DNA of 64,000 nucleotides, from positions 6,066 through 70,065 of the forward strand of contig CAXMQS010000074.1 of NCBI GenBank assembly GCA_964195995.1. Direction: 5' to 3'. Below are positions 1,598 through 12,066 of this stretch, in pieces (the stretch's first letter is position 1; the number at the start of each line of letters is the position of its first letter). Below the pieces are notes generated by a model that made no database searches, was not told where the DNA came from, and saw only the letters and a program-made list of their open reading frames with translations. Origin of the DNA: an uncultured Acidimicrobiia bacterium (GTDB taxonomy: Bacteria; Actinomycetota; Acidimicrobiia; Spongiisociales; JAOTWH01). The translations under genes were made by a program, and so were the position numbers.

Positions 1598-1647
1598 ACG
1601 CCTTCACACGGCAGAGGTCACAGGTTCGATCCCTGTGGCGCCCACCA
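1598..1647 (+). repeat. Orphan tRNA-Val(CAC) 3-prime half, copy 1 (anticodon arm, variable loop AGGTC, T-arm ACAGG-TTCGATC-CCTGT, acceptor GGCGCCC-A-CCA); no 5-prime half
   Basis: The loop TTCACAC (anticodon CAC) lies at 1603-1609. The T-stem is perfect and CCA is encoded. Only 3 of 5 anticodon-stem pairs are present. No GGGCGCC acceptor strand or D-arm is found in the 80 nt upstream. Confidence 0.6.
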
Positions 1648-1691
1648 TCAGATTCACCATTCTTGCTGGCCGTCAGCTACGGCGTGGTCCG

Positions 1692-2630
1692 CTACCGCTC
1701 AACCGCGATGACCGGTCGAACCAGCGCCGTAGCCCGCTCGGGAACTTCCGACGCGAAGACCAGCACCGAGAGACCGAGGATCACGAGCGCACTCTGGTAG
1801 GTGCTGTGCAATCCGATGCCTCCTACCACCAGCAACCCGATGCCGACTGCGGTAAGCCCATCACCGCTCTTGACGATCATCACGAGGGCGTAGGTCAGGG
1901 TTCCGGCAGCCATCGCATATGCGAGCGCCGGGAGGTAGCCAGCTAACCCGAAGTTCCAGAGGAGCACGATCTTGGCGGTGGCTGGGGCCAATACGAGGGT
2001 CATCATCACAGCCCCACTGACCGCAGCCCCCCATGCGACCGCAGCCCCAGACGTCATCCTGGTTCGGGAGTAGACCAGCGCCATTGGTGCCGCTAGGACC
2101 AGTGTCTCGGCAGCCACCAGGAGCCACGGCGAGGCTTCTACGGGCCGGAGACCGCGGGCGGCAGCCTGTTGGGCGACTACGTAGAGGCCGCCGAGCAGGA
2201 AGCCTCCGCCGAATAAGAACAATGCCGGTCGCAGGCGTCGATCTGCCGCTGCGCATCCGACTGCAACCAGGCCGAACGAGGCCACGACGGCGACGGCGAG
2301 CAGCAGATCGTCGATGGCTCCGGCTCGCGCCAGGAACGCCGCTCCGACGAACACCGCTAAGGCCGTCGCCACGGCATGGTGGCCATGTTGGAGTGCAGCC
2401 CGCATGGCAAGTCCCAGAGCGGTGATCACGAGCACAACGGCCAGGTAGTAGGCGAACCTGCCCGACTCGGCAGCAGCCCGGTACGGAACTGCTGCGCGGT
2501 CGATGCCGGGGATGTGGATGGCGACTCGGGTTGCGGTCCGGAGGATGACGAGTTCAAAGACAATGACCACCAGTGCGACTTGCACCAACCACGGCAGCAA
2601 TCCGTCGCGAGGGGTGGGGGAGACCGCCAC
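1692..2630 (-). CDS. Polytopic membrane protein (about 10 predicted TM helices), unknown function; last gene of the oxidoreductase operon
   Basis: This uses the frame of ORF 1692..2726. The GTG at 2630 shares one base with the TAG stop of the gamma gene (TAGTG). The sequence is almost entirely hydrophobic Ala/Leu/Val/Gly-rich helices, and I recognise no family motif. Confidence 0.65.
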   Translation of the reverse strand: MAVSPTPRDGLLPWLVQVALVVIVFELVILRTATRVAIHIPGIDRAAVPYRAAAESGRFAYYLAVVLVITALGLAMRAALQHGHHAVATALAVFVGAAFLARAGAIDDLLLAVAVVASFGLVAVGCAAADRRLRPALFLFGGGFLLGGLYVVAQQAAARGLRPVEASPWLLVAAETLVLAAPMALVYSRTRMTSGAAVAWGAAVSGAVMMTLVLAPATAKIVLLWNFGLAGYLPALAYAMAAGTLTYALVMIVKSGDGLTAVGIGLLVVGGIGLHSTYQSALVILGLSVLVFASEVPERATALVRPVIAVER

Positions 2631-3628
2631 TATTCGGCTTGGTCCTGCTTGGGTGGTCGGGCCGCCACCTCGATCACGATGGCCAGCACGGCCAGTGAGC
2701 CGACGATGACGAGCAACGCGGCCCATGGAGGTCCGGGCTCACCCGAACTTACCCCGAAGTCGGGCGGCGGCGCCGCTACCGGAGGAGGTGCTGCGACTGC
2801 TCCGACTTCCAGCTTCAGGAATCCCGACACGGACTTCAGACCGTCCCTCTCCTCTGCGCTGCCGTCCCAGATCGCGAATGCGACGTCGATTTCCTGACCG
2901 TCGGCGAAAGCTGGCTGATCGGATCCCGGCGCCTGGAAGGGTCTGGCAAATACCACCGACCATTCGGTTCCGTCATGAACGCCGCTGCCCATTACCGCTT
3001 GCTCGTCGGCCGGAGTCAGTGTCCCGAAGCCGCCGGCCACCAGGTTCTGCACGGGACCGGAGCCGACTGCATAGACGTTGCCTGCAGCCTTGGCTGGGTA
3101 GAAGAGGTCGTCGGTCGACGGGTAGAGGTCGACGTAGCCGTGATCAGTTGTGGGTAGATCGTCGATGCCGGCCTCACTGTCGGCTCGCCACTGCCAGATG
3201 TTCACTGCGGCATCGGCCTGGCCCATACATATGGCGGGAACCGACGATGCGGGCTCGGAGGGGAACTGGATGGCGGCGCCGTCGGCGAAGTCCTCGACGG
3301 CCGTGGTGCCAGAGTCCACTGTGGTGTCCGACCAAGCCATCCGGATGTACAACACGTTCTCGTGGTTGACGCTGCGTATTTCGGCGATCGGAACGTTGCC
3401 TCCGCCGAGCGGAAACGTCACCTCTTGTGCGGTGAAGGGAACGTCGACCGCGGGAGCCTCATCCCACACCGAGCTGGCCGGGTCAAGACCGGGGTTCTGA
3501 CTCGCGGTGACGGAGGCCACGACGATGGCCTGCGCTACCGCCGGGTTAGCGTCCGCTAGCCGGAGGCCAACCGCTACCAACATCGCCACAGTGAGCACCC
3601 CCCACCGCAGCGTGCGGCCCGCCATCAT
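2630..3628 (-). CDS. Type II DMSO-reductase-family gamma subunit (EB_dh/DOMON-like heme-b domain) with N-terminal signal peptide and C-terminal TM anchor
   Basis: This uses the frame of ORF 2630..3682. The ATG at 3628 forms an ATGA overlap with the chaperone stop. The signal peptide reads MMAGRTLRWGVLTVAMLVAVGL...A. Family-like motifs are FADGAAIQFP, ICMGQADAAVNIWQWRA and FAIWDGSAEERDGLKS. A Pro-rich linker (APPPVAAPPP) precedes the TM helix WAALLVIVGSLAVLAIVIEVAA. Confidence 0.8.
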   Translation of the reverse strand: MMAGRTLRWGVLTVAMLVAVGLRLADANPAVAQAIVVASVTASQNPGLDPASSVWDEAPAVDVPFTAQEVTFPLGGGNVPIAEIRSVNHENVLYIRMAWSDTTVDSGTTAVEDFADGAAIQFPSEPASSVPAICMGQADAAVNIWQWRADSEAGIDDLPTTDHGYVDLYPSTDDLFYPAKAAGNVYAVGSGPVQNLVAGGFGTLTPADEQAVMGSGVHDGTEWSVVFARPFQAPGSDQPAFADGQEIDVAFAIWDGSAEERDGLKSVSGFLKLEVGAVAAPPPVAAPPPDFGVSSGEPGPPWAALLVIVGSLAVLAIVIEVAARPPKQDQAE

Positions 3629-4386
3629 GGCGCTGGCCGCGGTGGCAGCGACGCCTCGATGGCGGCCAGGGACGGACCACACCCGCCCTCGCCGCAGTCG
3701 ATCTCCTCCACTGGCGTTTCCGGGAGTGGCTGGTTCACAGACTCGGCGGGTGTCACCTCAAGCCGGTCGATCTCGCTAGCTAGCCAGCTGCCAAGCAAGA
3801 CGGCCAATGCCCGATAGAAGGGATGTGGGGCGACCAGTTCCACCCGCCGGGCGAAGCCCGGAGCCCAGCAGCCCAGGTGGTCGGAAACGAATAGCGCTTG
3901 GGTGTGACGGCACTCGGCTACATGTTCTGGGCTGAGCCGATCGAGGGCGTAGGCCTCTTTGCGATGCAGGAAGCTCATGAACTCGAGTTCCGTCGTGATG
4001 TGGTCGGGCCGTTCCCGCGCCTCACCACCGACCCGCAGGCCGTGAGCCGCGTAGAAACCGGCCACGTCGGCCATGACGTCTGCCTGTTGAAAGACGTCCT
4101 CGCCGCGGTACGCGGTCTCGTAGCTCGGGCAATCCCGGGATTCCACCTGGGGGAACAGCAGGAGGTGAGCGCTACGCAGCTCATCGAGCGGGGCTCGGCC
4201 CGCGGCTACGGCCTGGCGGAACGAGTGGTCGATGTCGTCATCCTCGAACCCGACCGCGTCCAGCAAGCCGGGAGCAGCCCGGTCGCCCACCGGGTACCCA
4301 AAGCCTCGAGCGAGGAATTCGTATACAACCCCGCGGGCCGCTGCGTCTGAGGACTCCCACACTGCGGTCATGCCTTCGGTCGTCAT
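3625..4386 (-). CDS. TorD/NarJ/DmsD-family redox enzyme maturation chaperone (delta subunit)
   Basis: The 253-aa ORF is acidic and cytoplasmic. ...HLLLFPQVESRDCPSYETAYRG...DVAGFYAAHGL...PDHITTELEFMSFL... is typical of the TorD-like chaperones of Ser/Clr/Ddh/Ebd-type operons. ATGA overlaps occur at both ends. Confidence 0.8.
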   Translation of the reverse strand: MTTEGMTAVWESSDAAARGVVYEFLARGFGYPVGDRAAPGLLDAVGFEDDDIDHSFRQAVAAGRAPLDELRSAHLLLFPQVESRDCPSYETAYRGEDVFQQADVMADVAGFYAAHGLRVGGEARERPDHITTELEFMSFLHRKEAYALDRLSPEHVAECRHTQALFVSDHLGCWAPGFARRVELVAPHPFYRALAVLLGSWLASEIDRLEVTPAESVNQPLPETPVEEIDCGEGGCGPSLAAIEASLPPRPAP

Positions 4387-11766: not shown

Positions 11767-11845
11767 GCGCACCAGGCCAATTGGCTGGAGACGCCAGGCC
11801 TTGTATGTGAGCCGCAGAAACTGCCCACCTTCGACCACTCAACGG

Positions 11846-11892
11846 CCCGCTCTTCGGGCGTCTGGTTTCCCGGTTCGATCCTGTAGCGCCCA
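11846..11892 (+). repeat. Degenerate tRNA 3-prime-end repeat, copy 2 (GGTTCGATCC-TGTAGCGCCCA)
   Basis: About 22 of 24 nt are identical to the T-loop/acceptor part of copy 1, with one C deleted. The T-stem no longer pairs. A 5-bp hairpin GCCCG-CTCTT-CGGGC lies at 11845-11859. Confidence 0.5.
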
Positions 11893-12019
11893 CGACAAGA
11901 GCCCCGCATAGGACGCGACTTGCTGAGAAACGAAGCGAACCGACGAGCTTCGATGAGTGCTAAGACCCCAGCTCAGAGGCCCTTTCAGACCGCTTCCGCC
12001 GGTCACGAAGACCCCCGGA

Positions 12020-12066
12020 CCGCCTTCACACGGCGGAAGTCACTGGTTCGATCCCAGTAGCGTCCA
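12020..12066 (+). repeat. Orphan tRNA-Val(CAC) 3-prime half, copy 3 (perfect anticodon arm CCGCC-TTCACAC-GGCGG, AAGTC, T-arm ACTGG-TTCGATC-CCAGT, acceptor AGCGTCC-A); no 5-prime half
   Basis: Read directly. Relative to copy 1 the T-stem carries a compensatory pair change (ACAGG/CCTGT versus ACTGG/CCAGT). The 26 nt upstream (TTCCGCCGGTCACGAAGACCCCCGGA) cannot form an acceptor or D-arm. Confidence 0.6.

Follow-up and report, generated by a model that had tools for sequence, protein, structure and literature searches.

Probable tRNA-Val(CAC) integration scars flank a molybdoenzyme operon in the genome of an uncultured Acidimicrobiia bacterium

The left end of a 64,000-nucleotide (nt) stretch of DNA from an uncultured Acidimicrobiia bacterium (hereafter the window, G000:C74:6066-70065) contains three partial copies of the 3' part of a tRNA-Val(CAC) gene, which bracket a 10-kb segment carrying an operon of the type II dimethyl sulfoxide (DMSO) reductase family. 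Our findings strongly support reading them as scars of integration at a tRNA-Val hot spot, and the left end of the window is best explained as the distal side of such a hot spot at tRNA-Val(CAC). Serial integration followed by decay is a likely overall history of the region, a judgement that blends the claims about the scars with those about the segment, and the arrival of the 10-kb segment itself on an integrase element is only slightly favored. The hot spot is of a known kind and does not constitute a new kind of system. The genome, G000, is a metagenome-assembled genome (MAG) of 99 contigs and 2.53 Mb, with 64% guanine plus cytosine (GC; 63.9%) and 88% completeness; contigs given without a genome label belong to it. 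The scars and the sequences preceding them are as follows.

1600-1647, plus strand: copy 1, an attR-type scar in the form of a tRNA-Val(CAC) 3' fragment, anticodon stem through CCA (GCCTTCACACGGCAGAGGTCACAGGTTCGATCCCTGTGGCGCCCACCA)
11872-11892, plus strand: copy 2, a tRNA-Val remnant with one deletion, comprising the 3' part of the T arm plus the acceptor strand (GGTTCGATCC-TGTAGCGCCCA)
12022-12066, plus strand: copy 3, a tRNA-Val(CAC) 3' fragment (GCCTTCACACGGCGGAAGTCACTGGTTCGATCCCAGTAGCGTCCA)
1436-1597, plus strand: putative attP-type P arm of the element ending at copy 1, with tandem repeats AGACCGCG-TAC-AGGCCGCG at 1463-1481, recognized by similarity to arms on C78, C36, and C81
11898-12019, plus strand: putative P arm of a second type, the presumed remains of a third element, recognized by similarity to loci in G012 and G008

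The identity of the fragments was established by comparison with the tRNA-Val genes of order-level relatives, whose intact tRNA-Val(CAC) reads GGGCGCTTAGCTCAGCGGGAGAGCGCTGCCTTCACACGGCAGAGGTCAC[A/T]GGTTCGATCCC[T/A]GTAGCGCCCA. All three copies lie in one orientation, copies 1 and 3 lack the 5' half, and the copies show 94-98% identity to the 3' portion of true tRNA-Val(CAC) genes. Relative to the intact genes, copy 1 has one mismatch and copy 3 has three; copy 1 is 98% identical to positions 28-74 of the tRNA-Val(CAC) of G014. Identity with the intact tRNA begins at base 3 of the anticodon stem, so that copy 1 retains only three pairs of this stem, and copy 3 retains five. The T stems of the two copies differ (ACAGG/CCTGT in copy 1, ACTGG/CCAGT in copy 3), and both versions occur in functional genes: the first in G014 and the second in G008, G012, G030, G024, and G013. 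A first-pass annotation of this DNA, made from the letters alone, had described copies 1 and 3 as tRNA-Val(CAC) 3' pieces without a 5' half that derive from two functional alleles through a compensatory T-stem change, and the intact genes of the relatives bear out both statements. Its observation that similarity reaches 5' of the tRNA part also holds, since GACCCCC is found before copy 1 (1587-1593) and before copy 3 (12010-12016).

All three pieces lie where that annotation had placed them. Copy 2, described there as a reduced piece, matches the tRNA end at 22 of 23 positions, although on its own this match is marginal (E value of 0.007 per genome and 0.24 by blastn-short). The pattern of T arm plus acceptor strand occurs twice in the window, against 0.11 matches expected by chance, and the ACGGCCGG flank of copy 3 matches the sequence 3' of the intact tRNA-Val(CAC) gene in G008. 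ARAGORN called no tRNA in the window or anywhere on contig C74, and no Rfam family matched the copies at the gathering threshold, the single weak match being at chance level (E 0.18). A candidate relative of copy 2 on C62 was dropped when blastn-short gave it no support.

An attP-type arm containing two 8-9-nt repeats in tandem stands before copy 1, and another before copy 3, in the layout of arm-type integrase sites in attP. As in the P arm of attP in lambda-type tyrosine integrase systems, short repeated sequences, the putative arm-type sites, lie at a fixed distance from the core and are common to several elements. The arm of copy 1 (160 nt) is 78% identical to the arm before a tRNA-Val(TAC) 3' fragment on C78, 81% identical to C36:144504-144592 at a Val scar, and 88% identical to C81:154-210, which lies before a tRNA-Met 3' fragment followed by an integrase fragment. 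The tandem motif of this arm type, CAG[G/A]CCGCG-TA-CAGGCCGCG, stands about 140 nt before the anticodon loop, and the form AG[GA]CCGCG-N-AGGCCGCG is also present in the P' arm beside the intact tRNA-Val(TAC) and an integrase remnant on C75. Four of the five genomic occurrences of the tandem motif are associated with att sites, namely three scars and the P' arm beside tRNA-Val(TAC), and among these the spacing stays at about 140 nt. The arm type was found in none of 80 other genomes of the order.

The arm of copy 3 belongs to a different type. One AGGACGCG copy is intact (within 11907-11917) and the second is degenerate, while arm and scar together are 77-81% identical to G012:C10:33-196 and G008:C43:399-568, which carry AGGACGCG-CAT-AGGACGCG. 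The corresponding arm in the same-genus genome G001 has a third type of tandem repeat, AATCCCAACA-G-AATCCCAACA, at a similar distance. A degenerate arm at copy 2, at first an impression by eye, was dropped because its Smith-Waterman score was no better than those of shuffles. As a separate observation, a GC-rich hairpin repeat at 1401-1427 on the plus strand (CCCCTGCTCCGGCGGGGGTCCCTTCGC / GGGACCCCTGCTCCGGCGGGGGTCCCTTCGCG) has about 11 copies in G000, the others being at C36:141339, C36:142248, C36:137423(-), C78:477, C78:1802, C92:6182(-), C16:3548(-), C52:2381, C95:6528, and C21:7971; in three places (the window, C78, and C36) it stands directly left of a P arm and tRNA-Val scar.

Tyrosine integrases adjoin tRNA genes elsewhere in the same genome. 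A profile search with PF00589 over the whole of G000 found an intact gene of 377 amino acids (aa) directly 3' of tRNA-Val(GAC) on C36, together with two truncated genes, one 3' of tRNA-Val(TAC) on C75 and one 3' of the Met scar on C81. No PF00589 integrase was found on C74, either in this genome-wide search or by Pfam analysis of all large open reading frames (ORFs) at 1-14004 and in the 6 kb left of the window. Val-type scars are present on at least three G000 contigs, and elsewhere in the order, too, genomes contain Val(CAC) scars in arrays, with three in G028:C1 as one example.

The comparison with G001 places a break in homology inside one of the scars. Contig G001:C35 is 96% identical at the nucleotide level to 12022-16000 and unrelated left of 12022, so that homology between the two genomes is lost within the copy 3 scar. 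The part of copy 3 from the T loop to the acceptor strand and the downstream flank are common to both genomes, and the first gene of this shared flank is the following.

12109-14004, plus strand: acetyl-CoA-synthetase-like gene (acs), identified by Pfam and by its 96% nt identity to G001

The scar of G001 is a hybrid, being copy 1-like up to the T loop (ACAGG) and copy 3-like after it (CCAGT), which produces a mismatch in the T stem. Four of 32 positions differ between the genomes left of the end of the T loop, against two of 87 in the next stretch, and this places the break in orthology at the T loop. These numbers are suggestive only, and they would fit a crossover at this point or later recombination between scars. 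G001 holds other DNA left of its scar rather than an empty site; searches recovered neither its 1.1-kb left flank in G000 nor C74:1-18087 in the 86%-complete G001 assembly. The first-pass annotation had suggested comparing relatives for presence or absence of the segment precisely at the repeats. At the right junction, the break falls inside the copy 3 scar; on the left, the DNA missing from the G001 assembly extends past copy 1 and amounts to at least 18 kb in all. An exact 27-mer scan for the acs flank returned nothing in metagenome contigs and only G001 among genome contigs, and exact-protein look-ups for acs and for the regulator described below returned no record. The candidacy of acs as a conserved neighbor 3' of tRNA-Val(CAC) was rejected, as no acs match was present in the short stretches around the relatives' tRNA-Val matches.

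An intact tRNA-Val, possibly with an integrase, had been expected left of the window. The 6 kb there contain neither a tRNA nor an integrase and consist instead of a glycosyltransferase block, and the start of the tRNA gene is found at the end of another contig, C2. This contig shows synteny with regions terminating at tRNA-Val(CAC) in G004 and G005, two genomes of the same family, and in G013 and G024, and its end (C2:9880-9918) carries a -10-like TACGAT followed, after 12 nt, by GGGCGCTT, the first 8 nt of tRNA-Val. The synteny, the promoter-like end, and these first 8 nt indicate that the tRNA-Val(CAC) gene exists and that the assembly breaks within it; contigs of G004, G005, and G012 likewise break at tRNA-Val(CAC). 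Two further features lie between the window's left edge and copy 1.

1-454, minus strand: right end of a 6.4-kb glycosyltransferase/GH130/GH5 block (C74:139-6519), by Pfam
574-1338, minus strand: truncated adenylate/guanylate cyclase gene, cut where it meets the glycosyltransferase block (Pfam Guanylate_cyc, residues 6-158)

The cyclase remnant, whose AAA_16 match covers only profile positions 1-51 of 167, the first third of the domain, is the truncated gene that the first-pass annotation had noticed left of copy 1. The glycosyltransferase block has sharp ends and is probably itself an acquisition, judging from its distribution. Over its full length it is 80-82% identical at the nucleotide level to G028 and G017, genomes of the family labeled f11, and 79% identical to G013 and G024. 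Six of the seven same-family assemblies (G001 and five others) did not yield it, and the seventh, G002, has only diverged and scattered pieces that are 67-79% identical. In G013 and G024, the block is located between tRNA-Val(GAC) and tRNA-Val(CAC), in the opposite orientation relative to G000. A simple inversion between two tRNA-Val genes was ruled out as the cause of the flipped orientation because the genes are direct repeats.

The segment between copies 1 and 2 (1648-11845) comprises three units, and Pfam agrees with the earlier description of a six-gene operon, a SnoaL-like gene, and a LuxR/HD-GYP regulator.

1692-9546, minus strand: type II DMSO-reductase-family operon (Pfam), with genes for a membrane ORF, an EB_dh gamma subunit, a NarJ-like delta subunit, a 4Fe-4S beta subunit, a small ORF, and a molybdopterin alpha subunit of 1153 aa
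9720-10118, minus strand: SnoaL-like gene (Pfam SnoaL_2)
10168-11766, plus strand: regulator with HD-GYP-like (HD_5) and LuxR helix-turn-helix domains (Pfam)

Scars in direct orientation bound this segment within 44 nt on the left and about 105 nt on the right. The operon is probably horizontally acquired, as suggested by the position of its alpha subunit, which clusters with those of G017 (f11) and G019 (f2) with 100/100 support and 77-81% aa identity, apart from a separate grouping of four operon-bearing same-family genomes to which it is 63-66% identical. The operon was not found in the G001 assembly. For the regulator, more than 300 homologues were detected (303 confirmed), and we took neighborhoods and identities from the 80 best of these, which are 66-76% identical in amino acid sequence over the full length, occur in varied neighborhoods, and come from MAGs of Actinomycetota, Acidobacteriota, Gemmatimonadota, Verrucomicrobiota, and Proteobacteria. 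None of these 80 loci has the operon beside the regulator, and the operon is present in relatives without the regulator or the repeats. Since the two are unlinked elsewhere, the segment is a mosaic and not a conserved module, and the designation of an oxidoreductase-regulator module as a unit did not survive the comparison. The regulator was also discarded as a marker of a mobile module, given the 0 of 80 loci with the operon and the lack of a consistent association with tRNA genes.

These observations can be arranged in a proposed sequence of events. Tyrosine-integrase elements bear an attP that duplicates the tRNA stretch between anticodon stem and 3' end, and integration rebuilds the tRNA gene while displacing the former 3' part downstream, behind the P arm of the element. 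Repeated insertion at tRNA-Val(CAC), followed by deletion within the elements, would leave scars ordered from right to left. Copy 3, next to the flank shared within the genus, would be the oldest; to its left, one element would have been reduced to its 122-nt P arm, and copy 2 would come next. There would follow the 10-kb integrase-less segment with the molybdoenzyme operon, the SnoaL-like gene, and the regulator, then copy 1 with its intact P arm, and then about 1.1 kb of a further element, represented by the cyclase remnant and the hairpin repeat, which would abut the 6.4-kb glycosyltransferase block. The 10-kb segment would accordingly have been the cargo of one element that later lost its integrase and P' arm. 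The scar context and the misplaced alpha subunit make arrival on an integrase element plausible. The earlier proposal of an att-flanked island brought in by a tyrosine-integrase element is supported as far as the att scars, the P arms, the adjoining integrases, the loss of homology with G001 inside copy 3, and the misplaced operon are concerned, and it loses support in its claim that 1648-11845 came as a single unit, for which no P' arm, integrase, significant copy 2 arm, or compositional signal was found.

Several results weigh against the proposed history. Neither an integrase nor a P' arm remains within 1648-11845, because the final gene of the operon stops just 44 nt from copy 1, and the DNA 5' of copy 2, compared with four P arms by Smith-Waterman alignment, gave scores within the range of shuffles. 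The GC content of the segment (63.7%, against 63.9% for the genome) is the same as that of the core right flank, and its tetranucleotide distance lies at the 84th percentile, again equal to the core flank, whereas the integrase-bearing island on C36 reaches the 99.5th percentile; the comparison of composition between segment and flanks that the first-pass annotation had suggested therefore gave no signal. In G017 and G019, the operon stands without Val scars within 7-11 kb, and the two alpha-subunit clades could be old paralogues that were differentially lost instead of the result of transfer. The flipped orientation of the glycosyltransferase block in G013 and G024 means that a rearrangement must be assumed, and the physical link between C2 and C74 is not assembled. 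Furthermore, copy 2 is a marginal match when taken alone, and an assembly of G001 that is 86% complete and lacks the operon is not proof of its absence.

Part of this evidence would also fit a history in which the scars are real and the 10-kb segment was never integrase cargo, either because small elements decayed around resident DNA or because the operon, the SnoaL-like gene, and the regulator were inserted between scars that already existed, by homologous recombination between dispersed tRNA-Val scars or by uptake of DNA from a related strain, with recombination taking place in the conserved scars. The missing integrase and P' arm, the lack of a significant P arm at copy 2, the native-like composition, and the mosaic nature of a segment whose operon and regulator are unlinked everywhere else are all compatible with such a history, and the Val-type scars on at least three contigs are possible recombination substrates. 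The inverted glycosyltransferase block is evidence of rearrangement in the region, and the G001 scar combines the copy 1 and copy 3 types. Nevertheless, directly oriented scars lie close to both ends of the segment, the assembly of the same genus lacks the segment, the phylogeny marks the operon as foreign to the family, and decay is documented to leave tandem arrays with islands that have no integrase (PMC3146451); we consider this history rather unlikely.

Two further explanations concern the repeats themselves. An assembly or binning chimera joined at tRNA-Val repeats, which would make the bracketing an artefact, draws on the fragmented and incomplete state of the MAG (99 contigs, 88% complete) and on the fact that C2 and several contigs of relatives break exactly at tRNA-Val(CAC). 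We judge it very improbable, as the scars (21-48 nt) differ from one another and are too short and diverged to mislead long-k-mer assemblers, the right junction of copy 3 and acs is independently reproduced in G001, and neither GC content nor tetranucleotide use shifts at the junctions. The first-pass annotation had also raised the possibility that the repeats are a dispersed structured family unrelated to tRNA; together with the idea of decayed tandem tRNA duplicates, likewise unconnected with site-specific integration, it could point to the roughly 160 nt 5' of copy 1 that are also repeated in the genome and to the absence of 5' halves. Such an origin appears even more remote, given the 94-98% identity to the 3' part of tRNA-Val(CAC), the occurrence of one upstream arm before scars of different tRNAs (Val-CAC, Val-TAC, and Met), the tandem short direct repeats in this arm that are typical of integrase arm sites, the integrase genes adjoining matching tRNAs, and the lack of an Rfam match at the gathering threshold; a gene duplicate would, moreover, retain its 5' half.

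Among known systems, the serial-integration history can be compared with genomic islands integrated in tRNA and tmRNA genes, which the Islander database reportedly defines, and with the sublocation classes of integration said to have been described by Williams in 2002. As in such islands, the tRNA 3' part recurs as a direct repeat at an end (copies 1 and 3, and copy 2 at 22 of 23 positions), the block of identity begins in the anticodon stem and reaches the 3' end, and tyrosine integrases adjoin target tRNAs in the same genome. In contrast to them, the segment has no integrase, C74 has no intact tRNA, only scars of the attR side remain, and the composition is not foreign. A cis-mobilizable element (CIME), by comparison, retains working attL and attR sites, and ICESt1 and ICESt3 of Streptococcus thermophilus are said to be examples of CIMEs and site-specific accretion. 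The present segment resembles a CIME in being a recombinase-less stretch between att-derived repeats near related elements, but its left junction has no P' arm (44 nt to the gene) and its right junction has no recognizable P arm, which makes mobilization in trans unlikely; we infer that the scars are now immobile.

The concept of CIMEs and site-specific accretion is cited in a study of Dehalococcoides (PMC3146451), in which tandem ssrA islands carry respiratory reductase (reductive dehalogenase) operons behind ssrA direct repeats and are partly integrase-less. The similarities are as follows: tandem islands stand behind one small-RNA gene, whose 3' end is repeated directly at the terminus of each island, some islands have no integration module, the cargo is a respiratory-type oxidoreductase, the region varies between strains, and the break in homology that we observe between two genomes lies in the T loop, the insertion point reported there (PMC3146451). 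The systems differ in target (tRNA-Val(CAC) here, ssrA there), in recombinase (PF00589 tyrosine integrases here, the CcrB-like serine recombinase DsiB there), in repeat length (45-48 nt here, 20 bp there), in host, which is here an Acidimicrobiia MAG, and in the comparison of two genomes here with many strains there (PMC3146451). Partial tRNA genes that persist in genomes are also the subject of a report on prokaryotic annotations in which fragments were wrongly called as tRNA genes (PMC9897764); the present fragments differ in that ARAGORN calls none of them and that their origin is documented by P arms and a sister genome.

The hot spot explains the contig breaks at tRNA-Val genes in G000 and its relatives. 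It also matters for inferring the metabolic traits of uncultured Acidimicrobiia from single MAGs, as at least 18 kb, including a NarG/EbdA-like molybdoenzyme operon that was probably horizontally acquired, are absent from a same-genus assembly. In addition, the region provides sequence-defined att arms and cores for a Val-tRNA-targeting integrase family. A more speculative and, in our estimation, improbable idea is that the array of scars still functions as a landing pad, at which the intact Val-specific integrase of C36 or a related incoming element could recombine copy 1, whose P arm is complete, with the tRNA or with other scars, and multi-gene blocks would be exchanged between Acidimicrobiia families by accretion and mobilization. 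Candidates for such movement are the molybdoenzyme operon and the 6.4-kb glycosyltransferase block, each of which is closest to genomes of f11.

Beyond the Val-type scars, tRNA scars are unusually common in G000. The gene for tRNA-Pro(CGG) on C59 (20485-20945, minus strand) is followed by two 204-nt tandem units, identical at 202 of 204 positions, and the T arm plus acceptor strand recurs at the end of each unit. A unit at C64:765-960 shares the C59 junction, in which a hairpin is followed by GACGCTCCTTG[C/A]TAGGT, and from their structure the C59 and C64 units may be miniature att-only units. At tRNA-Sec (C32:30485-35100), two more fragments of its own 3' end lie 1.7 and 2.8 kb apart, and a fourth is located at C88:1177. 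Finally, a family of Lys/Ile-like 3' fragments (…CTT[A/T]TAATCCGAAGGTCGAGGGTTCGATCCCCTCCCGGCCCA) is represented by six copies on different contigs.

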